Below, piece by piece: positions 3,443 through 34,075 of a DNA stretch of 51,935 nt (position 1 is the first letter of the stretch; every line of letters begins with the position of its first letter). A program made the translations under genes and the position numbers. The DNA comes from Candidatus Doudnabacteria bacterium (GTDB taxonomy: Bacteria > Patescibacteriota > Doudnabacteria > UBA920), in the NCBI GenBank assembly GCA_038203095.1, contig JBBREH010000004.1, positions 1 through 51,935 of the forward strand, in the 5' to 3' direction. Under the pieces are notes generated by a model that had not been told where the DNA came from, did no database searches, and saw only the letters and a program-made list of their open reading frames with translations.

Positions 3443-6079
3443 CTAAAATGTTAATTTTTTTGAAAGCCAATTTTTAATATGCGTTTCGTCGCGATTAAGC
3501 CAGGCCGCATTGCTATAAATTTTTTCTAATGTCTGTTCAATCGCCCGTTTTGCACCAGGGGCTTGATGCTTTTTGAAGAATAGATTAACTTCCGTGGCCT
3601 TTTCCATAGTGACAAACCCGGCCGCAGGTTTAATAAAGCGGTTTAAAATATGCCCGGAGCCGGGATATTTTTTTAGCAGTTCGGCCCAATGCGTTTTGGT
3701 AAACTGCCATGCCAAATTACGACCCTCTTGATTCGCCCAAACCGAGGAAAAAATTTGCGCCGTGTCCTGAATACGAACATCTTTGGACATTGCAAATTCT
3801 AAAGTTTTTTTGAGCAGGCCAGCATCTTTAAACTGCCCCAATGCGCGACCAATCCGGTTTTGCTCTTCATTTAACTGTTCACTTTTATACCGCGCGACAA
3901 AATTCGCATGTTGTTTAGCGTTGCCGGTTTGGGCAACTATTTGATAAATTAGACTGCGAATGTCAGGAGGAATTTTTCCGGATTCAAAAATCTTTAGGCC
4001 TAACTCAATTGTAGACTGGTGGTTAAAAGCCGTTAGCTGGCCTAAAATTAAACTACGCAGCAAACCATAGGTATGCTTCTCACCTTTTTTTGGATAAAAT
4101 CCAACTGCCTTACCTATGGGTGATAATAATTTTTGCGCAAATTGTTCAAAGTTTACATAAAAATCCGAGCCGTAGATTAAGTTTTTCACCCCGGCCAGCC
4201 CGCTTACTAATTCTACCCAAACTGTATAGTCTGTTTCATTAACATAGGCTTCGGCCAGTTCAAGCGCCTGCACAGTAGGCAACTGCCCTGCTTCCGCTAA
4301 GGCAAACGCGTCCCGAACCAGACCCAAACGGTCTATTGGAGAAATATTTTTTTCCTTCACGGGCTGTCGCAACGCCGCGAGCATTTGCGCCGGATAATCT
4401 ACCCGAAAAAATCCTGTCTCGCCAACATTTAACTTAGTCCAATCAGATTTTGTCTTGCCAATAGTAGCTGATTTGCTTTTGAGCAAAAACTTTCCGGCTT
4501 GAGCGGTTTGGGGCATACCAATTCCAATAGGAATATCCCAAACTGTTAATTCGGTGCTTTTTTTCTTTGATATAGAGGAAGAAAAAAATCTCTCCTGCGT
4601 GAGCTTAAAATTTTTCAAACCTTCAACAATTTTTACAACCGGATACCCGGGCCTACTGGTCCAATTTTTCATTAATTTTTCAACCGGTTTACCGGAAACT
4701 TTTTCCAACGCCTTCCATAAATCGACTGTGGAAGCGTTAGAGTAAGAATGTTTTTTTAAATAGTACCTTAATCCGTCACGGAAATCTTTTTCACCCAAAT
4801 AGCCGGCAAGCATTCTTATAATACTTGCGCCTTTGCTGTAAGAAATTTCATCAAAAATTTCACCTATCTCATCGGGGTGACCAACCTCCACTTCTATGGG
4901 GTGTGTATTTTTTAGAGCGTCTAATTTTAACGCCACGCCCAAATCGGCATAAGCAAACTGGGTCCAAATATCCCAAGAGGGAAAAAGCTTGTTAGTAGCT
5001 AAATATTCTATATAAGAAGCAAAGCCTTCGTTTAGCCACAAGTGCGTCCACCATTCCATAGTCACCAAATTTCCAAACCACTGATGCGCCAGTTCGTGGG
5101 CAATTACCAAAGCGACCCATTGCTTGTTGGCGGCCGATGAATTCTCGGGATCAACCAATAATGCCGATTCGCGGTAAGTCACCGCGCCCCAATTTTCCAT
5201 AGCACCGTGGGAAAAATCGGGAATAGCAATTAAATCTAAAACGGGCAACGGGTAAGGAATATCAAAATATTCATTATAAAACTCCAAAACTTTAATGGCG
5301 GTATCCAATGCGAATTTAGCCTGGTGTTTTTTTCCGGGAGTTACAAAGACACGGACGAGTGTGCCTTTGTCGGTTTGGCTTGTAGGGAACGGTTTAAAAC
5401 CGTTCCCTACCGAAACCTTCCGCTGTGACTTTGTACGTCCTTCAATAAACTCAAAATCCCCGACTATAAAAGCCAGTAGGTATGTGGACATTTTTGGCGT
5501 TGGCGCAAACTTTACTACTCTGTACCCGCTCTTATGCTCGACAACAGAACTTTCTACGGTATTGGATATTGCGGTTAGCCCCTTGGGGACCATTAGTGTT
5601 ACATCAAACACAGCCTTAGAGCTGGGCTCGTCAAAGCACGGAAACGCCCTGCGGGCATCGGTTGCTTCAAATTGAGTCGTAGCCATATGCTTTTCTTTAC
5701 CCTCGTGCATATAACGACTTCGGTAAAATCCACGCATTTTGTCGTTTAATATACCGGAAAATTTTAGGCGCAGTTCCCCTTTTCCCTTTGGCAAAGCTTT
5801 CGCAAATTTGAAAGTTGCGGTTTCACTTTTTGGGTCATAATTAGTGCTCCCCCTCCTCTCCTGGCGAGGAGAGGATGCCCGAAGGGCAGGAGAGGTCGAA
5901 ACATAGATTGACGATGCTATATCCAACTCCTTACTATGTAGCGTAATTTCCGTTACTGCTTTTTTTAAATTCAAAAAAATTACTTCATCCCCTTCAAAGG
6001 TAAAGTTTTTTAAGTCAGGTTTTATGGTTAACTGATACCTTTCGGGCTTAATATATTTTGGGAGTCTAACGTGTTTCAT
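3443..6079 (-). CDS. pepN: M1 family aminopeptidase (PepN/puromycin-sensitive type)
   Basis: GAMENWG and HELAH...WLNEGFA zinc motif; two in-frame palindromic insertions. Confidence 0.95.
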   Translation of the reverse strand: MKHVRLPKYIKPERYQLTIKPDLKNFTFEGDEVIFLNLKKAVTEITLHSKELDIASSIYVSTSPALRASSPRQERRGSTNYDPKSETATFKFAKALPKGKGELRLKFSGILNDKMRGFYRSRYMHEGKEKHMATTQFEATDARRAFPCFDEPSSKAVFDVTLMVPKGLTAISNTVESSVVEHKSGYRVVKFAPTPKMSTYLLAFIVGDFEFIEGRTKSQRKVSVGNGFKPFPTSQTDKGTLVRVFVTPGKKHQAKFALDTAIKVLEFYNEYFDIPYPLPVLDLIAIPDFSHGAMENWGAVTYRESALLVDPENSSAANKQWVALVIAHELAHQWFGNLVTMEWWTHLWLNEGFASYIEYLATNKLFPSWDIWTQFAYADLGVALKLDALKNTHPIEVEVGHPDEIGEIFDEISYSKGASIIRMLAGYLGEKDFRDGLRYYLKKHSYSNASTVDLWKALEKVSGKPVEKLMKNWTSRPGYPVVKIVEGLKNFKLTQERFFSSSISKKKSTELTVWDIPIGIGMPQTAQAGKFLLKSKSATIGKTKSDWTKLNVGETGFFRVDYPAQMLAALRQPVKEKNISPIDRLGLVRDAFALAEAGQLPTVQALELAEAYVNETDYTVWVELVSGLAGVKNLIYGSDFYVNFEQFAQKLLSPIGKAVGFYPKKGEKHTYGLLRSLILGQLTAFNHQSTIELGLKIFESGKIPPDIRSLIYQIVAQTGNAKQHANFVARYKSEQLNEEQNRIGRALGQFKDAGLLKKTLEFAMSKDVRIQDTAQIFSSVWANQEGRNLAWQFTKTHWAELLKKYPGSGHILNRFIKPAAGFVTMEKATEVNLFFKKHQAPGAKRAIEQTLEKIYSNAAWLNRDETHIKNWLSKKLTF
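5382..5410. repeat. GTAG-type REP palindrome within pepN
   Basis: GTAGGGAACGGTTTAAAACCGTTCCCTAC, read as VGNGFKPFPT. Confidence 0.85.
5847..5897. repeat. CCCCTCCT-type double-hairpin repeat within pepN
   Basis: TCCTCTCCT-GGCG-AGGAGAGGA plus TGCCC-GAA-GGGCA, read as TSPALRASSPRQERRGS. Confidence 0.75.
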
Positions 6080-8319: not shown

Positions 8320-11052
8320 CTATTTATTTCTTATGTTGGTTTGATGTTCAGGCGAATTAATTAATCCGCATTTTTTATATTTTTTACCGGATCCGCAGGG
8401 GCAAGGGTCGTTGCGTCCGATGTTTTGCCCCCGTAGGGAACGGTCTAGACCGTTCCCTACGCTACCATCGGAACGGTTTGTTACTAAATTTATCAGCGAC
8501 GGTTGTTCAACAGGCTTTTGATTCACCTGAACCGATATGTGAAAAATGGTAAAGACAATTTGTTTATTAATTTCTTTAACCAAATTTTGAAACATTTGGT
8601 AGCCTTCTCTTTTGTATTCCACCAGCGGGTCGCGCTGGCCGTAACCGCGAAGGCGGACACTGTCACGCAAATGGTCCATAGTGTCCAAGTGCTCCATCCA
8701 TAAATTATCCAACGACTGTAAAGCAACAAACCTTTGCGCGCCCTCAAATACTTCTTTGCCCATTTCCTTTTCTTTGGCCTCCCAAAAATCAACGGCGGTT
8801 TTATAAAGCCTATCAATTATGGCAAATTCTTTATCCCCGGCGCTTCCGGCTTCTTCTTTAATTTGATTGATTAGTTTTTGATCTATTGGAATTATAGCGC
8901 TGGCGGCCGTAAGCAAACTTTCCATATCTTCCTTGGTGTTGCCGTACTCGTCAAGCAAATTCAAATTAAATTTAACCAAGTCAGAAATTTCCTCACGAAC
9001 CATTTCTAAAATCTCGGCTTTTAAGTCTATTAATTTAGCTTCCTCGGTGCCGGCCAAATAACCACGGCGCTTTTTGTAAATAATATTTCGCTGGTGGTTT
9101 AAGACGTCGTCAAATTCTAGCACGTGTTTTCTGGTGTCAAAATTTAAGCCTTCTATTCTCTTTTGAGCGGACTCTATAGATTTGCTGACCATTCTGGCTT
9201 CGATGGGCTGGTCGTCGGTTACTCCTAAAGTAGTCATGAGCGATTTCATCCGCTCGCCACCAAACAGGCGTAAAAGATCATCTTCCATACTTACAAAGAA
9301 CTGGGATGAACCCGGGTCGCCCTGACGTCCGGCGCGCCCTCGAAGCTGGTTGTCTATGCGGCGCGATTCGTGTCGCTCCGTGCCTAAAATGTGCAAACCG
9401 CCGGCTTCACGTACTTTTTTTGCTTCATCTGCGTCTATTGGGTTACCACCAAGTAAAATGTCCACGCCACGACCGGCAATGTTGGTGGCCAACGTTATTT
9501 GACCTAACCGACCGGCCTGAGAAATAATTTGCGCTTCGCGCTCGTGGTTTTTGGCGTTTAAAATTTCAAACTTTAAACCTTCGGATTTAAAATGTTCGGC
9601 AAGCATTTCATTTTTAGCAATGCTCACTGTGCCAATTAAAATTGGCTGGCCTAATTTGTGGCGCTCCTTAACTTCGCGGGTAATTGCTTTGAATTTTTCT
9701 ACTTCAGTTTTATAAACTATATCCGATTTGTCATCCCTAACCATTGGCTTGTTAGTTGGAATTTGCTCTACCGTTAACTGATAGATCTTAAAAAATTCCT
9801 CTTCTTCCGTTTTGGCCGTACCAGTCATACCGGAAAGTTTTTTGTACAATCTAAAAAGATTTTGAAAGGTAATGGTGGCCAAGGTTTTACTTTCCTGCTG
9901 GATTTTAACATTTTCCTTGGCCTCAATAGCCTGGTGCAAACCTTCGCTGTACCTACGACCAAACATTAGCCGGCCTGTAAATTCATCTACAATAATAATT
10001 TCGCCCTCGCGCACAACATAGTCACGGTCTATTTTAAATAAAGTTCTGGCACGCAAAGCCTGCTCAATGTGGTGGATAGTAGTTACACCTTTGGAAGTAT
10101 CGTAAATATTCGGCACTTTTAAAATGCTTTCGATTTTGGTAATGCCGGCGTCACTTAAACTGGCGGCTTTGTGTTTTTCGTCAACAATATAATCGGTATT
10201 GTCTTCAAGCCGATCCACCAGTTTGGCAAACTCATAATATTTACTGGTTGGCTCGCTGTCGGGCATACTAATAATGAGCGGCGTGCGGGCTTCATCAATT
10301 AAAATGCTGTCTACTTCGTCGACAATGGCAAAAAATAATTCGCGCTGAACCAGATTCTGGGCATTCTGCACCATGTTGTCGCGCAAAAAATCAAAACCGT
10401 ATTCATTATTAGTGCCGTAAGTAATATCTGCGGCATAAGCTTCGCGCCTGGTAATTGGCCGCATATGTTTAACATCCATTACCAGCCCTTGGGTTTCGCC
10501 TTCTAAGCGGTCTATTTCTTCCTGCTCGGGTTTGTAATTAGGGTCGTAGAAAAAAGATTGTTCGTGCTGAATGGACGCTACTGATAATCCAAGATAGTGA
10601 TAGACCGGACCCATTAACGAAGCCTGCCACCTTGCCAAATAATCGTTAACCGTAACTAAATGCGCGCCCTTGCCCGCAAGCGCGAAAAGCGCTAACGGCA
10701 AAGTGGCAGTTAAAGTTTTTCCTTCTCCGGTTTTCATTTCCGCAATTTTTCCAACAGCAAGCACAAACCCGCCGGCTACCTGCACATCGTAATGAAATTG
10801 GCCAATGCTTCTTTTAGCCGCCTCCCGCGTTAATGCAAAAACCCTGGGCGCAATTTTCCTTAACTCCTCAAAAATTTCCTTTTCTGTTTCTAATTTCTTA
10901 ATTTCGTCCTTGAATTTCCCAATTTCTTCCCGGATTCTTTCCTGCGATAATTTCTCAATTTCTTGCCCGTATCCATTCACTTCCAAAAGCTCTTTGGCAA
11001 ACCGGTCCAAAGGATTTTTATCTCCGCTAAAAAATTTATCTAAAAAAGACAT
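8320..11052 (-). CDS. secA: Preprotein translocase ATPase SecA
   Basis: MKTGEGKT, DEVDSILIDEART, QLRGRAGRQGDPG, C-terminal GRNDPCPCGSGKKYKKC. Confidence 0.99.
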   Translation of the reverse strand: MSFLDKFFSGDKNPLDRFAKELLEVNGYGQEIEKLSQERIREEIGKFKDEIKKLETEKEIFEELRKIAPRVFALTREAAKRSIGQFHYDVQVAGGFVLAVGKIAEMKTGEGKTLTATLPLALFALAGKGAHLVTVNDYLARWQASLMGPVYHYLGLSVASIQHEQSFFYDPNYKPEQEEIDRLEGETQGLVMDVKHMRPITRREAYAADITYGTNNEYGFDFLRDNMVQNAQNLVQRELFFAIVDEVDSILIDEARTPLIISMPDSEPTSKYYEFAKLVDRLEDNTDYIVDEKHKAASLSDAGITKIESILKVPNIYDTSKGVTTIHHIEQALRARTLFKIDRDYVVREGEIIIVDEFTGRLMFGRRYSEGLHQAIEAKENVKIQQESKTLATITFQNLFRLYKKLSGMTGTAKTEEEEFFKIYQLTVEQIPTNKPMVRDDKSDIVYKTEVEKFKAITREVKERHKLGQPILIGTVSIAKNEMLAEHFKSEGLKFEILNAKNHEREAQIISQAGRLGQITLATNIAGRGVDILLGGNPIDADEAKKVREAGGLHILGTERHESRRIDNQLRGRAGRQGDPGSSQFFVSMEDDLLRLFGGERMKSLMTTLGVTDDQPIEARMVSKSIESAQKRIEGLNFDTRKHVLEFDDVLNHQRNIIYKKRRGYLAGTEEAKLIDLKAEILEMVREEISDLVKFNLNLLDEYGNTKEDMESLLTAASAIIPIDQKLINQIKEEAGSAGDKEFAIIDRLYKTAVDFWEAKEKEMGKEVFEGAQRFVALQSLDNLWMEHLDTMDHLRDSVRLRGYGQRDPLVEYKREGYQMFQNLVKEINKQIVFTIFHISVQVNQKPVEQPSLINLVTNRSDGSVGNGLDRSLRGQNIGRNDPCPCGSGKKYKKCGLINSPEHQTNIRNK
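8433..8460. repeat. GTAG-type REP palindrome within secA
   Basis: Perfect palindrome GTAGGGAACGGTCTAGACCGTTCCCTAC, read as VGNGLDRSL. Confidence 0.88.
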
Positions 11053-11079
11053 AAAGCTACAGAATTACAAATTATAATG

Positions 11080-11196
11080 CACTACAGAAAACTACAGAAT
11101 CTTTATCCAGGCACCTTCCAGGATAACCCGCAGGAAGGTGCTTGGATTTACTATCTTAACTAACATTTCACAAAGGTTCTGTAGTTTTCTGTAGTG
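11080..11196. repeat. Nested inverted repeat upstream of secA
   Basis: 20-bp perfect IR CACTACAGAAAACTACAGAA (11080-11099 / 11177-11196) enclosing TCCAGGCACCTTCC..GGAAGGTGCTTGGA. Confidence 0.8.
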
Positions 11197-11467
11197 TTCG
11201 CTGATTGTTTCCGTAGCTTATTATAACAGACTTCCGCCATAAAAAAAAGCCTTGAATTGAGCTCTGTAAGCATGTGGCGGCGGCCATTGGCCGCCATATT
11301 ATTAGCCATTTATGGGCAAACCCGACAACGCTTGGATTTATTTGCCTCCAAGTTTCGTAGTTTTTTGTAGTGTACCAAATGCTCCCTTATGTAGCACCCT
11401 TTACAACTCTCTCTCTTTGCTAATTTAACTTATCCTCCCGATGAGGATAGAGGATAAAGGAGGTCAA

Positions 11468-11773
11468 ATAACCAACCAGGTGACCAACTAGGAATTTCAA
11501 AGGCTCGCGGCCCAAAAGGCACACGAAATTTGGGAAAAATGGGAGCATGTACTACGGCTAAATTGCTGGAATAAAGCCGTTGCACAACTCCAAAAACAAT
11601 ACATGACGCCGTCCGGAACCTTTTGTGATGCGGCGGTTGCGCCCATTGCTTTTGGGATACATGAGGAGCGCCAAGAGGCGCACGCCCGTCAAGACTGGAA
11701 AGACTCGGAATACGCCGTAGGATGGATGCTCGCGTTTAACAAAACACGAGCTGAAGTGCGAGTTATATTGTAA
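11468..11773 (+). pseudogene. Disrupted ORF with two DUF2934-like repeats
   Basis: SD AAAGGAGGT, then ATA ACC AAC CAG GTG ACC AAC TAG, then an open frame EFQRLAAQKAHEIWEKW...W..A...IAFGIHEERQEAHARQDWKDSE. Confidence 0.5.
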
Positions 11774-12055
11774 GAGATTCTCTGCATATGGACCTGCTTT
11801 GGGTCTTAGAAGCTGAATCAATTCCGAACCATATAACGACCTGGGGCTTCTAATGACCAACAACAAAAACTCATCCCGCATCCGCAGCGCCCCACTTGCG
11901 GATTTTTTTATTAATTGAATCTGGTGCGCTGGCCAAATAATAGTGCTCGACCTTGTGGAGAGCCTATTATTTGACTGATAAAAAGAAAAAAATATCTTCT
12001 CCATAAAGTCGAAGAATATTTTTTTTGAAAACCGCAAAATTTGTAAGTGCCTACA

Positions 12056-12090
12056 AATAAAAACCGGCCCTAGTGTAACATTGGGCCGGT
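12056..12090 (-). terminator. Intrinsic terminator
   Basis: ACCGGCCC-loop-GGGCCGGT followed by TTTTATT on the minus strand. Confidence 0.7.
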
Positions 12091-12125
12091 GCTGAAGTAG
12101 AAATTGCGCCTGCAATCAGCTCAGG

Positions 12126-12164
12126 CTATGTCCAGTCCCCATCAAAACTCCATGCGGTATTCAT
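12126..12164 (-). CDS. 12-aa micro-ORF MNTAWSFDGDWT
   Basis: AAAGGAGG SD 4 nt before the ATG; terminator follows. Confidence 0.4.
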   Translation of the reverse strand: MNTAWSFDGDWT

Positions 12165-12263
12165 GAGGCCTCCTTTTTTTTTGATTGCCATTTAGGCTCT
12201 TTGCAGAGCCAGGAAAATGTTCTCTCTATTGAGACTCAAATTCCTCGCCCTGAATTTCCAGAG

Positions 12264-12458
12264 CTATTCGCTCGCCATAATTGATTCGGCCGCCCTGCCA
12301 CATGAGCAGGAGAGGCTACCATGAACCGCAATTTTGCACTTCGGGCAAAATAAAACATTAAGTTTGCCCTCCTGTAACATCAAGAGCAAAGAATACTGCA
12401 AACTCCCGTGCTTCGGGTTTCCCAAAGCTTCAATTGCTTTTTTTCTTCTATCGGACAT
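12264..12458 (-). CDS. Small hypothetical protein with a CPKC...CSC putative zinc ribbon
   Basis: AGGGAGG SD before MSDRRKK; CxxC and CxC motifs. Confidence 0.65.
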   Translation of the reverse strand: MSDRRKKAIEALGNPKHGSLQYSLLLMLQEGKLNVLFCPKCKIAVHGSLSCSCGRAAESIMASE

Positions 12459-12527
12459 ACTTCCTCCCTGGCGCAACTTGCGCCTTTTTTGATTGTGTTG
12501 AACCTCCCCACAAAATTGTGGGCAAAC

Positions 12528-12554
12528 AAAAAACCGGCCTCGCGTTGAGGTCGG
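12528..12554 (-). terminator. Terminator of the putative aromatic-amino-acid attenuator
   Basis: CCGACCTC-AACGC-GAGGCCGG-TTTTTT; its 5' arm and loop are complementary to upstream GCGTTGAGGCCAGAA. Confidence 0.7.
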
Positions 12555-12591
12555 AAGTTTAGAGTCGAATGCGATCTGTAATATCTGCGGC

Positions 12592-12681
12592 TTAATTTAA
12601 TCTGCGATCTTTCAACTCAAAATTTCTGGCCTCAACGCCCAGTGTAAAATAAAACCAAAAATTTTGTGTTAATTCGCTCAT
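12592..12681 (-). CDS. Putative leader peptide MSELTQNFWFYFTLGVEARNFELKDRRLN
   Basis: Five consecutive aromatic codons; lies between a promoter and a terminator/antiterminator pair. Confidence 0.65.
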   Translation of the reverse strand: MSELTQNFWFYFTLGVEARNFELKDRRLN

Positions 12682-12688
12682 TTCAAGT

Positions 12689-12715
12689 ATTGTAACAGAT
12701 GCGTATAAATTGTCA
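12689..12715 (-). promoter_or_regulatory. Sigma70 promoter of the FWFYF leader
   Basis: TTGACA-16bp-TACAAT with TGn extension, 7 nt before the leader ATG. Confidence 0.7.
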
Positions 12716-12786
12716 AATCGCGATCTGATTTTAGCCTTCTGCGAGTAATACATATCCTTTTCTGTAAAAAAATACTGCCGGCCCCA

Positions 12787-13008
12787 TTAGTGCTTGGGGC
12801 CGGCCTTGAACTTTGCGCGAGTGCAATATTGCAGGTCGCGAAGTTCAATCTGAAAAGCTTGCCCAGGTTCTTCCCCAGGCTGTCTCACTGCGCACTGCAT
12901 TACATTCCCAATATAATACAATTGGAACGTTTTCCCTTTCAAGAATGGAAAACGTTTTGTCATTTGAGGTTTTTTTGTGCGCAGGTACATTTTTACTTTT
13001 ATAATCAT
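12787..13008 (-). CDS. Hypothetical basic protein (73 aa)
   Basis: GGAGG SD before MIIKVKMYLRT. Confidence 0.55.
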   Translation of the reverse strand: MIIKVKMYLRTKKPQMTKRFPFLKGKTFQLYYIGNVMQCAVRQPGEEPGQAFQIELRDLQYCTRAKFKAGPKH

Positions 13009-13141
13009 TGGTCCTCCAACTTTTTTGCAGGCAAACCAGCACCTTTGCTCTGCGATGTAGATTTGTGCTGGCGGCCGGCTAAGTGCATTAGCCAATCGCC
13101 AAAACAAATTTTGCTTGACCTTCTTGGTTCGCCTTTTTCGT

Positions 13142-13172
13142 TAGCGTACTAGTACGTTGAAACGAAAAAGGA
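13142..13172. promoter_or_regulatory. Putative TrpR operator downstream of trpB2
   Basis: TAGCGTACTAGTACGTTGAAACGAAAAAGGA, identical to 15000-15030. Confidence 0.65.
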
Positions 13173-13180
13173 CTAATCTT

Positions 13181-13215
13181 TATTCAGGGGATGTATACCC
13201 TACATCCCCTGAATA
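13181..13215. terminator. 15-bp perfect hairpin after trpB2
   Basis: TATTCAGGGGATGTA-taccc-TACATCCCCTGAATA; no clear U-tract on the minus strand. Confidence 0.5.
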
Positions 13216-13237
13216 TTAATGACAACATAGAACATTT

Positions 13238-14545
13238 TTACTCTTCTGAAACTTTTAAATTTCCGTTGATATAATCCGCGTAGGCCTGCATATCAAAGTG
13301 ACCGTGGCCACTGAGGTTAAAGACTATGGCTTTAGACACACCTTCTTTTTTACATACCAACGCTTCATCAATGGCCGCCTTAATGGCAAAACAAGACTCC
13401 GGCGCCGGTACAATACCCTGGTTTTGGGCAAACATCACTCCGGCCGCAAACGCATCTTTGCTTTCCAATGCCCGAGCCTCAATGATTTTATGTTCATATA
13501 ATGCGCTAACTATGGGCGAAGCGCCGTGGTAGCGCAAACCGCCGGCATGAATCTTAGGAGGCATAAACTGAGCACCCAGGGTTTTCATTTTCATTAGCGG
13601 AGTCATTTGCGCGCTGTCACCAAAATCATATTCATATTTACCCTCAGTTAAGCTGGGACAAACTTTAGGCTCTACTGCTATAGCACGCAGGTCCGGCTTT
13701 TTGCCAGATAGTTTATAGGCCAAAAACGGAAAGGCCAAACCAGCAAAATTACTACCACCACCATGACAACCAATAATTATGTCGGGAAAGTCCCCGACTT
13801 TTTCCAACTGTTTTTTAGTTTCTAAACCAATAATGGTTTGGTGTAAAAGCACATGATTAAGCACGCTACCCAGCGCGTATTTGGTCCCTTCATGGGTAAC
13901 GGCGTCTTCTATTGCCTCGGAAATAGCAATACCTAAACTGCCGGAATTATTAACATCTTCCTCTAAAAGTTTTTTACCAAATTCCGTTAAGGAGCTGGGA
14001 GACGCAACCACCTTACCGTTGAACAACTGCATTAGAATTTTCCGATAAGGTTTTTGTTCAAAGCTAATTTTTACCATATACACCATACACTCAAGCCCAA
14101 AATAGTGGCAGGCAAAACTCAGCGCACTCCCCCACTGCCCGGCGCCAGTTTCTGTAGCCAGTCGTTTTACGCCCTCAGCTTTGTTATAAAAAGCCTGGGC
14201 TAACGCGGTGTTAAGCTTGTGACTGCCCACCGGACTAACACTTTCGTTTTTGTAATAGATTTTGGCCGGCGTGTCCAAAAGCTGCTCCAGCCGCCGGGCG
14301 CGGATAAGGGGCGTGGGTCGGTAGAGCATATAAGCTTTTCTAACTTCATCGGGAATAGCAATATACCTTTCTAAACTGACTTCTTGTTTAATTAATTCCA
14401 TGGGAAAAATTCTGGCCAAATCGGCGGGACCGATTGGCTGCTTGGTTTTGGGGTTTAGTGGCGGGTCTATTCCAAAAGGTAAATCGGCCAAGATGTTGTA
14501 ATAATGAGTGGGAATTTCATTTTCTTCCAATAAGATTTTAGGCAT
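13238..14545 (-). CDS. trpB2: Tryptophan synthase beta chain, type 2 (TrpB2), stand-alone
   Basis: GSHKLNTA (PLP lysine), ETGAGQWG, GGGSN, HAGGLRYHG, NLSGHG; 435 aa; no adjacent trpA. Confidence 0.95.
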   Translation of the reverse strand: MPKILLEENEIPTHYYNILADLPFGIDPPLNPKTKQPIGPADLARIFPMELIKQEVSLERYIAIPDEVRKAYMLYRPTPLIRARRLEQLLDTPAKIYYKNESVSPVGSHKLNTALAQAFYNKAEGVKRLATETGAGQWGSALSFACHYFGLECMVYMVKISFEQKPYRKILMQLFNGKVVASPSSLTEFGKKLLEEDVNNSGSLGIAISEAIEDAVTHEGTKYALGSVLNHVLLHQTIIGLETKKQLEKVGDFPDIIIGCHGGGSNFAGLAFPFLAYKLSGKKPDLRAIAVEPKVCPSLTEGKYEYDFGDSAQMTPLMKMKTLGAQFMPPKIHAGGLRYHGASPIVSALYEHKIIEARALESKDAFAAGVMFAQNQGIVPAPESCFAIKAAIDEALVCKKEGVSKAIVFNLSGHGHFDMQAYADYINGNLKVSEE

Positions 14546-14549
14546 AGAG

Positions 14550-14957
14550 TTATTTGTTATAAATTAATTGTTTTAATGAAATGTTAATTTTGGGTAATTT
14601 AAAGTTAAAATGATGCTTGGTCGTCTTCAAAGGAAAAAGTTGACGGTTTAAGGCCCTGTTTATTATGATTTTTTTGCTAACTGCGAAGTTTTTTCGGCGG
14701 CTGGTCACAGTGATTTTTGAAGATTGGTAATTAACCAACAAAACTGGAATTAGACTGCAGCCAGACTGTTTAACAACCTGCATCCGGTGGTGACCGTCTA
14801 AAACAACTTTAGATTTTAGATCAACCACTATGGGATAAGTGAATTTGCGGGCTTTGTGCAAGAACGCCGAAACTTTTTTTAATCGGTTCGGACTGGTTTG
14901 TTCGTGAGGTTTAAGTTGATTAATTTTAAAAAGTTTTACTTGGTTTATTAATGACAT
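14550..14957 (-). CDS. ParB/Srx-fold protein resembling SerK/SbnI serine kinases
   Basis: LKPHE, PIVVD, VLDGHHR, IPV..VNY and C-terminal LFPLKTTKH; no ParB HTH; ends 4 nt before trpB2. Confidence 0.75.
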   Translation of the reverse strand: MSLINQVKLFKINQLKPHEQTSPNRLKKVSAFLHKARKFTYPIVVDLKSKVVLDGHHRMQVVKQSGCSLIPVLLVNYQSSKITVTSRRKNFAVSKKIIINRALNRQLFPLKTTKHHFNFKLPKINISLKQLIYNK

Positions 14958-14999
14958 AAATTTAAATTCTCCTTCATTGTTTAGATTTTCATTTTACAG

Positions 15000-15030
15000 T
15001 AGCGTACTAGTACGTTGAAACGAAAAAGGA
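15000..15030. promoter_or_regulatory. Putative TrpR operator upstream of the ParB-like/trpB2 pair
   Basis: GTACTAGTAC core; identical 31-bp copy at 13142. Confidence 0.65.
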
Positions 15031-15188
15031 TAAACTACCCCGCAGCAAGCTGCAAGATATTAACTACAAATGCTTCCTATTTCCGGCGAGTGCATCCGAG
15101 CGAGAAATCTGTTATTAATAGACCTCTCAAATGCACTTGGGGTAAAAACTGCAGTAGAGCTGCGCAGTATTAAACCCAAAGGAGATAA
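15030..15188. mobile_element. Degenerate IS200/IS605-end-like palindromic element
   Basis: Starts AACTACCCCGCAGCAAGCTG like 15411; ends CTGCAGTAGAGCTGCGCAGTATT; interior differs. Confidence 0.55.
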
Positions 15189-15189
15189 T

Positions 15190-15224
15190 AAAAAAACACC
15201 CTCCGCAATAGCGCGGAGGGTGTT
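15190..15224 (-). terminator. trp attenuator terminator
   Basis: 12-bp stem AACACCCTCCGC/GCGGAGGGTGTT plus a T-tract, 12 nt after the leader stop. Confidence 0.85.
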
Positions 15225-15236
15225 CTAAAAGGAACT

Positions 15237-15314
15237 TTAGAATAACCAAAGCCGGCTTTGCGGGCGCAAAACCTGCCACCAAGAGACTGACTGGTTAAAT
15301 AGGAAATTTCTCAT
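15237..15314 (-). CDS. trpL: trp leader peptide MRNFLFNQSVSWWQVLRPQSRLWLF
   Basis: Tandem TGG TGG plus a third Trp; sits between a consensus promoter and a terminator, upstream of trpB2. Confidence 0.8.
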   Translation of the reverse strand: MRNFLFNQSVSWWQVLRPQSRLWLF

Positions 15315-15323
15315 AACTCCCCT

Positions 15324-15352
15324 ATTATACACCATCCATGCCTTCGTGTCAA
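15324..15352 (-). promoter_or_regulatory. Consensus sigma70 promoter of the trpL-trpB2 unit
   Basis: TTGACA-17bp-TATAAT, exact consensus. Confidence 0.88.
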
Positions 15353-15353
15353 C

Positions 15354-15370
15354 AGCGTACTAGTACACTG
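15354..15370. promoter_or_regulatory. Putative TrpR operator abutting the -35 of the trpL promoter
   Basis: CAGCGTACTAGTACACTG near-perfect palindrome. Confidence 0.75.
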
Positions 15371-15406
15371 AAACAGGAAAACATGAGTAAATTTCCGTGA
15401 TTCATA

Positions 15407-15548
15407 AATGAACTACCCCGCAGCAAGCTGACGAGGTATCAACTGCAAACTGCAACACCCCTCCCTAGCCCTCCCCATCAAGGGGAGGGAATACTGCAAG
15501 GGAACCGCAGCAAGCTACGGGGTATTGACCAAAACTGTGACAAATAAA
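15407..15548. mobile_element. IS200/IS605-end-like palindromic element, copy 2
   Basis: Inverted near-identical copy of 1153-1294. Confidence 0.65.
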
Positions 15549-15576
15549 TTGCGAGATATTTACAATTTAAGCTAAC

Positions 15577-15617
15577 TTGAACTAATTAACCGAATGTGGT
15601 AGTGTACTAGTACACTA
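15577..15617 (+). promoter_or_regulatory. trpR promoter with overlapping operator
   Basis: TTGAAC-17bp-TAGTGT with TGn extension; perfect 18-bp palindrome TAGTGTACTAGTACACTA at 15600-15617 covers the -10. Confidence 0.75.
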
Positions 15618-15637
15618 ACGTTTAAAGGAAATATTTT

Positions 15638-15928
15638 ATGCAATACAAACATGAGTATGGCGTGGAATTGGAACAGCTTTTGCGCAAGGTGGCCGGTGAT
15701 AAAAATAAAGGCCTACTGAGGGAATTTTTGTTTGATTTGCTTTCACCTAAGGAATATAAAGACTTAGCTGTACGCTGGCAAATTATTAAGGCTTTAGAAG
15801 CTAAAGTCCCCCACCGCGACATTGCCAAAAAACTCAAAGTCGGGGTAGCCACAATTAACCGCGGCTCGCGCGAACTGGCCAACAAAAAGGGTGGGTTTAG
15901 ACAAGCTGTGGATAAATATTTAAAATAA
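15638..15928 (+). CDS. trpR: Trp repressor family protein (TrpR/YerC-YecD)
   Basis: DLLSPKEY..LAVRWQII..L....PHRDIAKKLKVGVATINRGSREL HTH signature; divergent from trpB2. Confidence 0.88.
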   Translation: MQYKHEYGVELEQLLRKVAGDKNKGLLREFLFDLLSPKEYKDLAVRWQIIKALEAKVPHRDIAKKLKVGVATINRGSRELANKKGGFRQAVDKYLK

Positions 15929-16175
15929 TTTTTTTAGATTACGACTGCTAAATGGTTATTTTCCGGGACAGTCTAAATATGACTTATGTACTGGATCCCG
16001 GACATTTTTCACAGCCCTGAAAAAGTCCTGGATGACAGCTAATTTTTGCTTCAGTCGCATGTTAGCTACACTCTTTTCTATTTACCCAAAAATTGCTTAG
16101 ACTGTTACTACCAATAACAAATATTAGGATTTATACAGTTTCATAATTCAAGACCCATACACACCATCAAAACTT

Positions 16176-16207
16176 AAAAACCGTCCTTTTATTAGGACGG
16201 TTTTTTT
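16176..16207. terminator. Bidirectional intrinsic terminator
   Basis: AAAAACCGTCCT-loop-AGGACGGTTTTTTT between convergent trpR and hpf. Confidence 0.75.
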
Positions 16208-16289
16208 ATTACATAATTCAATCAAAACATCTTCTCCATAGAGCCTGCCCCGCGCTTGACACGAGATCGAAAAATATTTTGCCGCCTTG

Positions 16290-16610
16290 CTAATGGGTCT
16301 TTTCGCGTTTACGTCTTTGGCTAACTTTTTTGTCTTTTAAGCGGGCAAGTTGTTTTTTAATTTTGGGAAGAACTAAGTCAAGCGCCGAATAAAAATCTAA
16401 GCCCCTGGCTTCCGCATATTGACCGCGAGGCTGAATATCAATTTCCACTCGAAAACTTGTTCCGCCGCTGTGTTTTTTATCCAATTCAATTTCTACACGA
16501 ATTTTATCTTCCTCGCGAATAAAAACTTCCAAAATTTGCAATTTTTCAAGAATAAATTCTTTAATTGCAGGTGTGAGAGTTGTATTGGTAGCTTTGATAT
16601 TGACATTCAT
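16290..16610 (-). CDS. hpf: Ribosome hibernation factor (HPF/RaiA)
   Basis: MNVNIKATNTTLTPAIKEFILEKL...DFYSALDLVLPKIKKQL. Confidence 0.88.
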   Translation of the reverse strand: MNVNIKATNTTLTPAIKEFILEKLQILEVFIREEDKIRVEIELDKKHSGGTSFRVEIDIQPRGQYAEARGLDFYSALDLVLPKIKKQLARLKDKKVSQRRKREKTH

Positions 16611-16703
16611 ATAAAATTTTTCCGAAAATTTTAGTTTGTAAAATGATACTATTTTATTATCTTTGGTTATTATAGCATACTTTCTTTTCCCGATGTGTCC
16701 TCC

Positions 16704-16788
16704 TGTAGCCAGCCCATCCCGTATCGGGTACAAGACAGATTCATAGGCTTTTATTTAATAAGGACAGCCGATAAATCGGCTAACTACA
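16704..16788. repeat. REP doublet (REPIN-like)
   Basis: TGTAGCCAGCCC...AGGACAGCCGATAAATCGGCTAACTACA. Confidence 0.75.
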
Positions 16789-16816
16789 GCCTTATGTTTA
16801 AAGGCTTCTTGACCAC

Positions 16817-17872
16817 TTAAAAGCCTACCAATTCTGGTTCAAATTGCAGTTCTATTCCGGTCTTGTCTAATATTGATTGCCTGACCAGTTTAGCTAAATT
16901 TAGCACATCATCGGCAAAGGCGGTGCCGGTTTGATTGATTATTACCAAGGGCTGATTTTCATTTATAGCCGCGCCCCCAACGGATGAACTTTTTAATCCG
17001 CAAAGCTCAATTAAAAATGCGGCAGGCAATTTAACCTGGTTGCCCTCACTAAACTTTTTCTTTTCCATTTCCAAAACTTTTTCCGTTCCAAATGATTTTT
17101 CAATAATTTTTTTGCAACTTTCATAGCCATTTTTGTCAAAAAATGGGTTTTTAAAAAAGGATCCCGCGTTGCCCTTGACCGCCTCAGTCGGAAAAGGAAA
17201 TTTTTGGTCACGGATGTTTATTACCGCCAACCGGATTTCTCCCAGGGTCGGAATCCTATTTTGAAATTTTAAATTCAAATCTCGGTAGCTTAAATTTGGC
17301 TTGCCGTCTTTTTTTAAATTAAAAATAATTTCAAAAATTATATACTTGCCTTTTTCCGAGGTATTAAAAATGCTTTGCCGGTAGCCAAAACCGCAGGCGC
17401 TATTTTTAAAACTGCTTATTGTCCGGCTTTCTCGGTTAAATACTGTCACAGACTCTATAACATTTTTTGCCTCCTGACCATAAGCACCCACATTTTGCAC
17501 GGCTATCGCACCGGTGGAGCCTGGTATATGCGATAGATTCTCAATCCCCCACCAGTTGTTTTTTACCGCAAAGCTTACAACTTCGTCCCAAACTTCTCCG
17601 GAAGCAACCTTTAAAGTGACGTACGATGAGTCTTCTGCCAAAACTTCTATGCCTTTATTGACAACTTTTATTACCAGCCCATCAAAGCCCTTATCACTAA
17701 TTAGCAAATTGCTCCCGCCACCTAACACAAAAGCGTTTAAACGATTTTGTTTTGCAAACTCAAAAGCCGTTAGCGCGTCAAACTGGTCCTTAACCACACA
17801 GAAATATTTGGCCGGTCCACCAATTTTAAAAGTGGTATATGGCGCTAATTGTACATTTTCTTGAATTTGCAT
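16817..17872 (-). CDS. murB: UDP-N-acetylmuramate dehydrogenase
   Basis: TTFKIGGPA, LGGGSNLL, IPGSTG, QNVGAYG, GNAGSFFKNP. Confidence 0.97.
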   Translation of the reverse strand: MQIQENVQLAPYTTFKIGGPAKYFCVVKDQFDALTAFEFAKQNRLNAFVLGGGSNLLISDKGFDGLVIKVVNKGIEVLAEDSSYVTLKVASGEVWDEVVSFAVKNNWWGIENLSHIPGSTGAIAVQNVGAYGQEAKNVIESVTVFNRESRTISSFKNSACGFGYRQSIFNTSEKGKYIIFEIIFNLKKDGKPNLSYRDLNLKFQNRIPTLGEIRLAVINIRDQKFPFPTEAVKGNAGSFFKNPFFDKNGYESCKKIIEKSFGTEKVLEMEKKKFSEGNQVKLPAAFLIELCGLKSSSVGGAAINENQPLVIINQTGTAFADDVLNLAKLVRQSILDKTGIELQFEPELVGF

Positions 17873-17880
17873 AGTTAAAA

Positions 17881-18170
17881 TTATTCCGTTAAATCTTTTG
17901 AATCAAATAACTTATCGTTTATGTATTGATTAATTGCTAGCATATCAGCATTTTCATCAAAGTTCTCTGTTTTTAACCCCAGCAAGACTTTAAACACTGC
18001 GACTGCCATTCTGTCTGTTTTGCTAAAATTTTCTTTTCCTGAATTCGCAAGCTCAAGAATCTGCTTGCCAACAAATTTATACAAAGCTCCAAAAGTTGTA
18101 TTTGAAGGAATGGATTCTTTTTTTCACTGAAATCTAAAAAAGTTAAAACTGTTGTTAGTAGTGCTCTCAT
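17881..18170 (-). other. Hypothetical gene split at an A7 run (frameshifted)
   Basis: ATG at 18170 overlaps the upstream stop; a -1 shift at GAA AAA AAG joins it to the 17881-18084 frame. Confidence 0.45.
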
Positions 18171-25038: not shown

Positions 25039-26235
25039 CTATTTAATTAAACGGATAATTTTATTAATAGACTCCTTAAAATTCTGCTTTCCAAATTTTT
25101 TGGCTTGGTTTAGCAAAACGCTTTGTTGATATTTTTCCGGATGCCAATTCAGGATTAGATTTTTGAGTTCGGTTTTGACATTATTGTAATGCAGAGCATC
25201 GCCTTGCTTTACAGGCAGGCCGGGGGCCTGCACTACATTGGTAACAGCATTTCCGCCAAACAATTCTCCGGTTTCACCCGGTACAACTGTCTCCAGAGCT
25301 CCTCCTTGCGCAAAGGCCAGCGTTGCTGTGCCACAAGCCGCGGCTTCGAGCGGCATAAGGCCAAAATCTTCGATTTGCGGGTACAAAAAGCCCAGGGCGC
25401 CACTATACTGCTCGCGCAGTTCAGTATCTGATATACGGCCTAAAAAGCTAATGTTTGGTTTGGCAATCGATTGCAAATATTTTTCCTGGCGGCCGGTGCC
25501 GACAACATGCAGGGGCAAGCCGAGTTCGTTGAATATTTCAATAATCAGTTCGTTTTTTTTATGAGCTTGGAGACGGCCGGCGAGGAGAAAATAGTCGCTT
25601 TTTTCAATACCACCTCCCCCCGCTTCGCGGGGTACTCCTCCTTTAAAAGGAGGAGATGGCTGCACTGGTTTCCAAAACTCCGTATCAACAAACGGATACA
25701 CTACTGTACTAGTACACTCATAATAGGCTTGAATACGATTTTGGACTTCTTGGGAGTTGGCAATAAATTGAGTTACTCTTTGCGAACCTTTGTGGTCCCA
25801 TTTTTTCATCTGAACTAACAACCACTTTACAATCGGTCTAATAATAACCGGAACTTCCTGATTGACATAATTTTCATCTCCCCACAAAAATCTGGTTGGC
25901 GTGTGACAATAATTTACATGCCTGCATTTTTTTGGCACGCGAATATTTTTTATAAACCCCGAGCTGGAAGAAAGCACCACATCATAACCCCTAAAATCAA
26001 GCGACAAAACCGCAAAAGGAATTAACGGCAAAAAATACTGCAGACGCGGAATAAAATTATAAAAAACCTGAAGCCAGGAAGTCCGAATATCCCAACCCTG
26101 GTACTTGTCTTTTAACCGACGATCAAGCACCAAAGTAAAAACCGGTGCATCCGGAAACATTTCGTGGAAAGTATCTACAATTCTTTCCGCGCCGCCTAAT
26201 TGGGTAAAGCTGTCGTGGGCAAGGGCAATTTTCAT
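25039..26235 (-). CDS. Glycosyltransferase family 4 (WbaZ-like)
   Basis: GGAER, YCHTPTR, EDFGLMPLEAAACG; two in-frame repeat insertions (25185-25237, 25609-25660). Confidence 0.93.
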   Translation of the reverse strand: MKIALAHDSFTQLGGAERIVDTFHEMFPDAPVFTLVLDRRLKDKYQGWDIRTSWLQVFYNFIPRLQYFLPLIPFAVLSLDFRGYDVVLSSSSGFIKNIRVPKKCRHVNYCHTPTRFLWGDENYVNQEVPVIIRPIVKWLLVQMKKWDHKGSQRVTQFIANSQEVQNRIQAYYECTSTVVYPFVDTEFWKPVQPSPPFKGGVPREAGGGGIEKSDYFLLAGRLQAHKKNELIIEIFNELGLPLHVVGTGRQEKYLQSIAKPNISFLGRISDTELREQYSGALGFLYPQIEDFGLMPLEAAACGTATLAFAQGGALETVVPGETGELFGGNAVTNVVQAPGLPVKQGDALHYNNVKTELKNLILNWHPEKYQQSVLLNQAKKFGKQNFKESINKIIRLIK

Positions 26236-27895: not shown

Positions 27896-28265
27896 GCTTT
27901 AAGCAAACCGAATAATCGCTTCTTAACTATATTGCAAGATTTAGCTAAGGGGAGGAAAGTCCGAACACTTATTTGATAGCCTCTTAAGAGTTATCAAAAC
28001 TGGTAGCGGGTAATTCCCGTCGAGAGTGATCTTAGAGGTGCGAACAGAAACGGCCAATGTCGAAAGACTAGGATGTCCAGCCGGTGGCGGGACAGTCCCC
28101 ATAGTAATATGGGGGTGAAACGGCTAAATCCTTACTTGAGTGCAAGACCAAATTAGGTAGGTTGCTTGACCCGTCTGGCAACAGACGAGGCAGATAGATG
28201 ATTATTAAACCCGTAGCTTTATGCGCCGCGGTAAACAGAATTCGGCTTATGAGTTTGCTTAAAGC
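27896..28265 (+). ncRNA. rnpB: RNase P RNA
   Basis: GAGGAAAGTCCGAAC and AACAGAATTCGGCTTA universal motifs; terminal pairing GCTTTAAGCAAAC/GTTTGCTTAAAGC. Confidence 0.96.
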
Positions 28266-33599: not shown

Positions 33600-33989
33600 T
33601 TAGGTTTTCTCTGATGCGTTCTTTCTACCGCTACCGGCAGTTTTACGGACATTGCCACGGCGAGTGCGCGAGTTAGTCTTGGTTCTTTGTCCCCTTACAG
33701 GTAACCCTCTAATATGGCGAATGCCTCGGTAACTTTGAATTTCTTTCAAACGTTTAATATTAAGCAACACTTGTTGTCTTAATTCGCCTTCCACTTTGAA
33801 GCTTTTTTCAATATACTCTCTAATTCGATTTAGCTCAGGCTCTGATAAATCTTTTGTCCGCTTATTTGGATCAACGTTGGTTGCGGCCAGAATTTTTTTT
33901 GACAGTGTTAAACCAACGCCAAAAATATAGGGCAAAGCCGCTTCAATTCTTTTTTCACTGGGAATATTAACACCTGCGATACGAGCCAT
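33600..33989 (-). CDS. rpsM: 30S ribosomal protein S13
   Basis: [31 protein letters not shown]. Confidence 0.98.
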
Positions 33990-34075
33990 ATTAGAAAATC
34001 TTTTAGCTTTAATCTTTGATCCTTAACATATTAGGCTTTTGCCGTTAAGGATTAACGATAAAGGATTAAGGATAA

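Follow-up and report, generated by a model that had tools for sequence, protein, structure and literature searches.

In the trpL leader of Escherichia coli, the terminator, at about −20 kcal/mol, is more stable than the antiterminator, at about −12 kcal/mol. Two other reports describe leader-peptide attenuators that are leaderless, namely the polycysteine upstream open reading frames (ORFs) of mycobacteria (10.1101/834739) and elements of Deinococcus deserti (PMC4007540). For the trpL attenuator of Sinorhizobium meliloti, the released RNA (rnTrpL) and the leader peptide (peTrpL) are reported to act in trans (PMC6614838; PMC7298713). Here we describe a tryptophan (Trp) leader on contig JBBREH010000004.1 of a Candidatus Doudnabacteria genome (1.27 Mb; referred to as G000, with relatives likewise given by number); the window is the whole 51,935-nt stretch of this contig that was analyzed. 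The leader lies on the minus strand, in front of a serine-kinase-like (serK-like) gene and trpB2, and a trpR-family repressor gene diverges from it. An original prediction, made from the sequence alone, had proposed a trp attenuator here in a probable genome of the Candidate Phyla Radiation (CPR), an assignment that agrees with the Doudnabacteria host. We consider it probable, from sequence comparison and modeled folds, that the leader is a ribosome-mediated Trp transcription attenuator layered on TrpR-family repression. The type of attenuator is already known; what is new is the lineage and the unusual salvage pair that such a leader would control.

The leader begins with a TTGACA-17-TATAAT promoter (15324–15352, minus strand; −35 at 15352–15347, −10 at 15329–15324), the sole 12/12 promoter match within positions 12000–18000. 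Behind it stands an ORF of 25 codons plus stop (15237–15314, minus; ATG at 15314–15312, TAA at 15239–15237), translated as MRNFLFNQSVSWWQVLRPQSRLWLF. With 9 nt between the −10 and the ATG, this ORF is nearly leaderless, and the transcript carries no Shine-Dalgarno sequence. Tandem Trp codons occupy codons 12–13 (15276–15281, minus), and a third Trp codon (W23) lies at 15248–15246. Hairpin 1:2 (GGUUUUGC/GCAAAGCC; 15254–15273, minus) begins 2 nt past the tandem codons; we infer a role as anti-antiterminator, possibly also as a pause hairpin. A composite antiterminator (2:3; 15209–15257, minus) is predicted from three pairings, AGCCGG:CCG-CGCU, GGU:ACC, and UUCUAAAG:UUUUAGAA. The intrinsic terminator (3:4) with its U-tract (15186–15226, minus) consists of a hairpin at 15226–15193 with 15 pairs, eight of them G-C, and a T-run; the core hairpin has a free energy of −23.6 kcal/mol. 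It sits between the leader ORF and the structural genes, as expected of an attenuator, and would yield a terminated transcript of ~125 nt. The 141-nt leader RNA folds better than 200 of 200 shuffles (z = −4.93).

Most of the original prediction survives at this level: the perfect promoter, the 25-aa ORF with its ATG 9 nt past the −10, and the GC-rich terminator with U-tract are all present in the sequence, and RNA folding, which it had proposed as a check, gives the result just stated. The position that it implied for the ATG (15313) is a one-base counting slip, the spacing and the ORF being right. The antiterminator pairing that it put forward (GGU..UUCUAAAG with UUUUAGAA.ACC) is predicted as claimed, but spans only the base of the terminator 5′ arm; the additional AGCCGG:CCG-CGCU pairing reaches the top of that arm and completes the antiterminator.

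In the mechanism that we favor, transcription would start 0–3 nt before the ATG, so that the 25-codon ORF would be translated from a message with (nearly) no leader. Under a shortage of charged tRNA-Trp, the ribosome would stall on codons 12–13 (UGG UGG) and cover GGUUUUGC; the 3′ arm thus released, together with the bases that follow it (CAAAGCCGG ... GGUUAUUCUAAAG), could pair with the terminator 5′ arm as it emerges (CUUUUAGAACACC ... CCGCGCU), the terminator would fail to form, and RNA polymerase would read on to the serK-like gene and trpB2. When Trp is plentiful, the ribosome would instead reach the UAA, which lies inside the antiterminator 5′ strand, so that the terminator would form and transcription would stop at 15186–15192. 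Without a ribosome, hairpin 1:2 would sequester segment 2, and the terminator would again form. Upstream of all this, the Trp-bound TrpR-family protein encoded by the divergent gene would sit on GTACTAGTAC beside the −35.

Two adjacent Trp codons (WW) occur in 52 of 5714 random ORFs of 15–35 codons in G000 (0.9%; Trp makes up 1.0% of residues), so that a single instance is weak and the weight rests on conservation. When 185,579 species genomes were scanned for the leader core, in addition to a DNA comparison with 61 relatives, only three further genomes turned out to carry this leader, all of them from the genus. Synteny is shared with G004 and G002, where hpf, the divergent trpR, the leader, the serK-like gene, and trpB2 follow in this order. 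Both of these leaders have the ATG 9 nt after the −10, a further 11 codons that are open but unconserved, and UGG UGG at codons 12–13; the core TGGTGGCAGGTTTTGC..CCGCAAAGCC and the terminator are kept as well. In G002, the serK-like gene starts ~15 nt past the terminator, as in textbook attenuators. All three serK-like/trpB2 loci (G000, G002, and G004) keep the ATG, the frame, and WW at codons 12–13.

TrpB-family genes are present in nine of 95 genomes of the family, as TrpB2 in these three and as TrpB1-like proteins in six others. Ahead of its first trp gene, each of the nine has a promoter, an ATG 6–12 nt past the −10 that opens a short ORF containing Trp codons, and a terminator. The Trp motif is WW in G000, G002, G004, G015, and G016, WWW in G026, and WLW in G008; in G010 and G031 it is reduced to one W. 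These leaders precede a trpE operon in G008 (..NVQWLWSSS..) and in G026 (..SLSWWWTLPSPQSPRF.., clearly homologous to the window leader), and they precede trpB1 in G015 (..SSIWWTAQKLWVD), G016 (..NIIFWWTAQNHRVV), G010 (..SGNWQTTHLSG), and G031 (..LINWRAAHFSG). At least three of the nine genomes' leader types are not mutually alignable. In G015, the four textbook segments appear as plain repeats (ACCGCCCAAA / UUUGGGUGG / ACCGCCCAAAG / UUUGGGCGG). Reading frame is preserved along with layout: over the ATG-to-first-Trp stretch of 12 leaders (150 codons), stops number 0 in frame against 21 and 5 off frame, a difference owed in part to the very definition of the ORFs as open, and TGG occurs 22 times in frame against 6 and 0 off frame in the same leaders. 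The ATG at the leaderless position is kept in 26 of 26 leaders examined. Conservation of the Trp codons before orthologous operons, which the original prediction had named as a check, is thus seen in 3/3 serK-like/trpB2 loci and in 9/9 genomes with TrpB-family genes. Since the same design recurs in relatives, the leader is most likely a classical E. coli-type Trp switch in a new bacterial lineage.

In G010, G015, G016, and G031, a second conserved small ORF separates the leader terminator from the stand-alone trpB1 (L163, 226–279; L161, ~2979–2917, minus; L162, ~2777–2700, minus; L165, from ~2772 onward, minus). Its peptide shares the core (F/Y)FK(D/A)(H/R)CTETWR, and the variation seen at third codon positions (ACG/ACC/ACT, CGA/CGT) suggests that selection acts on the peptide. 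This ORF could encode a regulatory nascent peptide.

Structural evidence comes from an alignment of the seven alignable leaders and from folds of 12 leaders on which a ribosome footprint was imposed as a hard constraint. Across the hairpin and terminator of the seven, 81.3% of cells are paired, against 41–52% with slid partners, and five pairs have changed on both sides, a number that 0 of 500 shuffles equaled. Two of the changed pairs fall in hairpin 1:2, which taken alone has 88.9% of cells paired, and three in the terminator. The helix between segment 2 and the terminator apex is conserved too (82.1% paired against 29–57% slid), and in the complementarity of CCGCAAAG to the apex (..UUUGCGG) the first four pairs are kept in all seven leaders. 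Once the ribosome is set on the stop codon, all 12 leaders are predicted to form the terminator. When the RNA is cut before the terminator 3′ arm and the ribosome is placed on a Trp codon, between 3/5 and 10/10 nt of the 5′ arm are paired across the 12 leaders, the proportion being at least 60% in all but G008 (4/10) and z ranging from −1.4 to −5.3. The composite antiterminator of G000 has a predicted energy of −13.6 kcal/mol (z −2.0), with 8 of 12 nt of the 5′ arm paired. Such a truncated, co-transcriptional state is a weaker argument for the antiterminator than a full-length fold. The original reading as a trp attenuator gains support from the conserved Trp codons, the covarying hairpin and terminator, and the predicted alternative pairings.

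No Rfam family matches the leader at threshold in the window or in relatives. Weak matches of the window leader to other amino-acid leaders and small RNAs are driven by the terminator, and Trp_leader (RF00513) gives no match in the window at gathering (41 bits) or at E up to 10; the G015 leader matches the Rfam Trp_leader below threshold (29.8 bits vs. 41).

Leaders of this kind also occur beyond the trp genes. A covariance model of the seven leaders was searched on the 95 family genomes and gave matches at E up to 0.01 in 33 of them; the best 21 places (seven training sequences and 14 new copies) were examined. All 14 new copies have an ATG at model position 1, behind TTGACA-17-TAnnnT and ~6 nt. 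Eight carry WW, five WxW (WNW, WRW, WPW), and one a single W, a count biased by the training of the model on TGG-containing leaders. Free of this bias are the in-frame persistence of the two UGG codons even where a codon is inserted between them, and the framing of the CGCAAAGYC arm, which is read in all three frames among members and is therefore conserved as RNA. A TrpR-type palindrome (GTACTAGTAC, GCACTAGTGC, or GTGCTAGCAC) lies at most 70 nt upstream of seven of the 14. The copy with a single W is the second member in G000 (contig C5:12184–12339), right after an operator and before an AstE/AspA-like gene. Genomes hold one to four copies, and the genes behind them are diverse; they include a ~265-aa unknown protein (once followed by a class I W/Y tRNA synthetase), a PPDK-like protein, and small unrelated ORFs. 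G017, G018, and G010 show trpR, operator, leader, and terminator with no trp gene behind, and the small ORFs that follow there are not mutually alignable and match no Pfam family. A looser core pattern that did not require TGG was also run on metagenomes; among the 119 matches listed, none had an operator within 130 nt upstream and none was leader-like, the pattern being too loose.

A conserved H-type pseudoknot is found between the leader terminator (in the window, between the end of trpB2 with O4, an operator-like palindrome described below, and what follows) and the start of small unrelated ORFs. Its layout runs CCAGCRC, an A-rich loop, stem 2, GYGCUGG, stem 2′, a Shine-Dalgarno sequence, and AUG. 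Copies lie in the window at 13071–13006 (minus), where the ORF behind has 73 aa and its ATG at 13008, on G000 contig C5 at 12367 (plus), in L021 at ~5665–5765, and at nine further loci. Over 11 sequences, 88.8% of cells are paired, against 28–45% when slid, and eight of 15 pairs have changed on both sides (seven of the eight in stem 2). No Rfam family matches at E up to 0.1 in the 10 of 11 loci scanned, and the window copy gives only chance matches at E up to 10. The pseudoknot looks like an undescribed riboswitch-like or translational element. The leaders of G017, G018, and G010 might be taken for orphans or relics; we reject a relic origin because this conserved pseudoknot and a Shine-Dalgarno sequence stand between their terminators and the ORFs.

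The second layer of the proposed control lies on the DNA. The divergent gene (15638–15928, plus) encodes a 96-aa protein with the Trp_repressor domain (PF01371, 67.8 bits against a cut-off of 27), which scores 44.9 bits on the equivalog TIGR01321, below the cut-off of 67.25. Its recognition helix, GVATINRGS, aligns with GIATITRGS of E. coli TrpR, and residues of the protein align with E. coli R54, R69, and R84, which we take to be functional TrpR residues. Four 16-bp operator-like palindromes with the core GTACTAGTAC occur in the locus: O1 (AGTGTACTAGTACACT; 15601–15616), 22 nt before the trpR start; O2 (15354–15369), which ends 1 nt upstream of the leader −35; O3 (15001–15016), in a 228-nt spacer between the terminator and the serK-like gene, within the 17-nt spacer of a weak promoter-like site; and O4 (13143–13158), downstream of trpB2. 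The position of O2 is kept in G004, G002, and G017, and in G018, G010, and G008. GTACTAGTAC occurs nine times in the 1.27-Mb genome, four of these within 2.5 kb at the locus, and the window holds five palindrome matches with at most one mismatch, against 0.31 expected. The remaining genomic sites precede the AstE/AspA-like gene, recJ, a GDSL gene, and hisG (the last after a TrpR paralog). Like TrpR operators, these CTAG-core palindromes lie at putatively regulated promoters and are rare elsewhere. The TrpR-family protein may bind the GTACTAGTAC sites in a Trp-dependent manner, and repressor and attenuator together would amount to an E. coli-like double Trp control. While the leader of the original prediction stands, its picture of the locus had overlooked the divergent trpR with its operators, the 228-nt spacer with a second operator, and the family-wide recurrence.

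Some further sites of this type were seen in passing. The fifth copy of GTACTAGTAC in the window (25706–25715) falls inside a 398-aa ORF (25039–26235, minus) and is probably there by chance. The TrpR paralog (G000 contig C33, L018, 2757–3210) ends ..THHHSLLPVGKGLR; behind it come an extended motif, TGTACTAGTACGATAGTGCAAAAGG, then a terminator-like hairpin and hisG. That extended motif also stands before the GDSL gene (contig C8, L017, 2660–2692). It may mark a second operator class or a His-linked control.

Several points weigh against attenuation as the explanation of this leader. The terminator outcompetes the antiterminator at equilibrium (−23.6 vs. −13.6 kcal/mol in G000), so that the switch must be kinetic, which lies beyond folding predictions; with the ribosome on the Trp codon, the full-length minimum-free-energy fold keeps the terminator in six of 12 leaders, G000 among them, and loses it in the other six. 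No pair in the helix between segment 2 and the terminator apex (2:3) has changed on both sides among the seven aligned leaders. Two close relatives have WR instead of WW, the compared sequences are kin, so that the counts overstate their independence, and the motif count from the covariance model is biased as stated above. The second UGG contributes its GG to the hairpin 5′ arm in many members, so that conservation of the UGG codons could be partly structural. Many family members precede genes without a known Trp link. In G000 itself, 228 nt intervene between the terminator and the first gene, and this spacer (14958–15185, minus) contains O3 together with the weak promoter-like site, TTCAAC (15019–15014)-17-TAAAAT (14996–14991), which has 8/12 matches as read by eye and stands 34 nt before the 135-aa serK-like ORF; the genes may therefore be driven partly or wholly from the spacer. 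Finally, both leaderless translation and coupled transcription and translation are assumptions for this lineage.

It is conceivable, given these points, that the terminated RNA of ~125 nt, or the peptide encoded by it, is made from a TrpR-controlled promoter and functions mainly on its own and in trans, in the manner of Sinorhizobium rnTrpL and peTrpL (PMC6614838; PMC7298713), and that read-through is minor or absent in G000. The operator and promoter-like site that the spacer places before the genes would suit such an arrangement, as would the leaders of G017, G018, and G010, which keep trpR, operator, and terminator without a trp gene; in G017 and G010, a second terminator-like hairpin follows the first, and across the family one to four copies per genome precede diverse genes. 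Yet the G002 gene ~15 nt past its terminator has the classical cis layout, all nine trp loci have such a leader directly upstream, and the seemingly orphan leaders, being followed by the conserved pseudoknot, a Shine-Dalgarno sequence, and an ORF, look cis-acting too. No target in trans is known or predicted here, no search for complementarity having been made. A function in trans would in any case be compatible with a role in cis and would not exclude it. As a substitute for ribosome-mediated attenuation, we consider this explanation decidedly improbable.

Alternatively, the TrpR-family repressor alone might control the promoter; the terminator would then be a constitutive leaky terminator or an insulator of the divergent units, the ORF would go untranslated, and UGG UGG would be kept as RNA structure. 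Operators do flank the promoters, equilibrium predictions favor the terminator, many members pair the GG of the second UGG within the hairpin, and nucleotide-level conservation of the core TGGTGGCAGGTTTTGC..CCGCAAAGCC extends to third codon positions. The first UGG, however, lies outside the hairpin, and an untranslated ORF sits poorly with the ATG kept at its leaderless position in all 26 leaders, with the stop counts (0 in frame vs. 21 and 5 off frame), and with two in-frame Trp codons that persist despite changes in their spacing (WW, WNW, WRW, WPW, WLW). The unrelated leader types before trpB1 also carry WW and the textbook 1:2 / 2:3 / 3:4 repeats (those of G015 given above), and seven of the 14 new model matches have no operator within 70 nt. 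Control by the repressor only thus appears very improbable. Hardly credible, finally, is a decision between terminator and antiterminator by a ligand or protein bound at the hairpin and its flanks (a riboswitch, or a TRAP/PyrR-like system) rather than by the ribosome: nucleotide conservation of the hairpin does exceed the needs of a plain stem, and a weak PyrR-site-like match overlaps the region (26.3 bits vs. a gathering score of 54, E 1.6), but no Rfam family reaches threshold, the hairpin has just 8–9 bp with a variable loop of 4–7 nt, the locus encodes no candidate RNA-binding regulator besides TrpR, a DNA binder, and the reading-frame evidence would be left unexplained.

The genes that an attenuator would control here form an unusual pair. 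trpB2 (13238–14545, minus) encodes a TrpB-like, pyridoxal phosphate-dependent enzyme of 435 aa (NF009057, 708.6 bits against a cut-off of 366; TIGR01415, 658.3 bits against 518.85). TrpB2 itself, in what the original prediction called a TrpB2 salvage unit, is well supported by the first of these scores; overlooked was the gene between leader and trpB2 (14550–14957, minus), which encodes a 135-aa ParB/Srx-fold protein resembling the N-terminal domain of the free serine kinases SerK and SbnI. No Pfam family matches this ORF. A profile built from the protein and two orthologs matches SerK (PDB 5x0b, E 8.4e-10) and SbnI (E 1.7e-6), with its HE and DGHHR motifs aligned to theirs. Only the N-terminal ParB/Srx-like domain aligns, the C-terminal half being absent (135 aa vs. 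242–256 aa in SerK and SbnI), and with 38 bits on both NF053625 and NF033589 (cut-offs of 380 and 350) the protein falls far outside these families; serine-kinase activity is for both reasons one that we infer. SerK, a free serine kinase, is described in PMC5120207, and TrpB2 enzymes are reported to depend on O-phosphoserine (Busch et al., 2014, as cited in PMC12790993). TrpA, indole-3-glycerol phosphate synthase, and TrpE (anthranilate synthase) were not found in G000, a genome scored as 100% complete, and the serK-like/trpB2 unit therefore looks like indole salvage. The pairing suggests a two-step route in which serine, via O-phosphoserine, and indole are joined to give Trp.

The same pair occurs in G000, G002, and G004 and, in another Patescibacteria family, in G210. 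Across the phylum, the serK-like protein was matched in 12 of 401 sampled genomes, and trpB2 adjoins it in one of the seven best loci (that of G210), so that the pairing is not general. No paper linking SerK-like proteins to TrpB2 was found, passages of PMC12704722 and PMC13759103 included. G210 has a T-box-like leader before its serK-like/trpB2 pair (L146, 1638–1880, minus) that stays under the gathering score of 93 (63.5 bits, E 1.2e-13) and has UGG then A at the specifier position. This offers an independent hint that the pair may be under Trp control.

The spacer of G000 shares a further element with relatives, in which TTATTAGCGACGTAGAGCGAG ... ATACAGGTTCAATACC ... GGAACCTTTATT follow the leader terminator; the element is readily recognized in G004, G008, and G015, and the window spacer holds a degenerate copy (window 14958–15185; L005, 750–870; L007, 1159–1350; L161, 2704–3080). 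Modules of the form CAGCTTGCTGCGGGGTAGTT are repeated at 15030–15052 and 15408–15430. Exact seeds of the repeated CCCCGCAGCAAGCTG modules occur only two to three times in the genome, counts that neither support nor exclude an origin as repetitive extragenic palindromes or miniature inverted-repeat transposable elements. Just past the trpB2 stop lies a perfect 15-bp inverted repeat (13181–13215); downstream of it, O4 (region 13130–13172) is flanked by CCTTTTTCGTT / AACGAAAAAGG. The 2.2 kb at 11052–13238 contain few long ORFs, none with a family, and include a strong promoter-like site (12716–12689) and a terminator (12804–12777). Elsewhere in the window, a class A RNase P RNA (27900–28265, 113.6 bits) and an alpha-operon ribosome-binding-site element (33957–34073, 41.5 bits) are present, both as expected.

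A broader interpretation would treat operator, leaderless WW leader, and terminator as a portable Trp-sensing cassette of Doudnabacteria, placed before varied cargo: trp genes, the serK-like/trpB2 pair, the AstE/AspA-like gene, or the covarying pseudoknot with its hypervariable small ORFs. In copies such as that of G000, with its 228 nt and second promoter-like site, the terminated RNA or peptide would also act in trans, and the serK-like/trpB2 pair, as an ATP-driven route from indole and serine to Trp via O-phosphoserine, would have been inserted between the cassette and an ancestral pseudoknot cargo. Taken with all its parts, we regard this scenario as unlikely.

To our knowledge, gene regulation in the CPR or Patescibacteria is almost unexplored, and the lineage has so far not been grown alone. 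In the open-access literature searched, no paper was found that joins Patescibacteria with leader-peptide attenuation, or the CPR with tryptophan synthase and indole; a single paper names both Doudnabacteria and tryptophan, each one time. A classical attenuator in Doudnabacteria would imply that transcription and translation are coupled in CPR bacteria, that intrinsic terminators are in use there, and that their ribosomes can initiate on messages with (nearly) no leader. Two layers of Trp control, repressor and attenuator, would then persist even at a genome size of 1.27 Mb, as they do in E. coli. The presence of TrpB2 beside a serine-kinase-like protein fits the use of O-phosphoserine, and suggests how an auxotrophic episymbiont may turn scavenged indole into Trp.

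Set beside known systems, the proposed attenuator shares with the Trp T-box a choice between termination and antitermination that depends on uncharged tRNA-Trp, and a T-box-like leader precedes serK-like/trpB2 in the family of G210. The window leader itself is without T-box features and does not match RF00230; tRNA charging would be read out through the translating ribosome rather than through tRNA binding. With the trpL of S. meliloti it shows no sequence similarity, and the likeness is one of kind, a Trp attenuator whose terminated product could have a function of its own, which bears on the copies without a trp gene. The leaderless attenuators reported from Actinobacteria and Deinococcus would share with that of Doudnabacteria a regulatory short ORF at or near the 5′ end of the transcript and the sensing of an amino acid through its codons; the Doudnabacteria leader differs in lineage, in its putative signal, Trp rather than Cys, and in the added TrpR operator. 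Relative to Rfam, the leader would work like Trp_leader (RF00513), and is not a member of that family as curated.

The closest comparison is with E. coli trpL. In both leaders, a pair of adjacent Trp codons within a short ORF falls at segment 1 or just ahead of it, and both have three hairpins, predicted in Doudnabacteria to be mutually exclusive, the last of which is an intrinsic terminator that is more stable than the antiterminator. Double control with a TrpR-family repressor and a CTAG-core palindrome would likewise be common to the two. The Doudnabacteria leader is distinguished by being (nearly) leaderless, by its lack of a Shine-Dalgarno sequence, and by its composite antiterminator; its operator abuts the −35, whereas that of E. 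coli overlaps the −10. And in place of trpEDCBA, the genes under its putative control are a two-gene salvage unit, serK-like and trpB2, in a CPR genome of 1.27 Mb.

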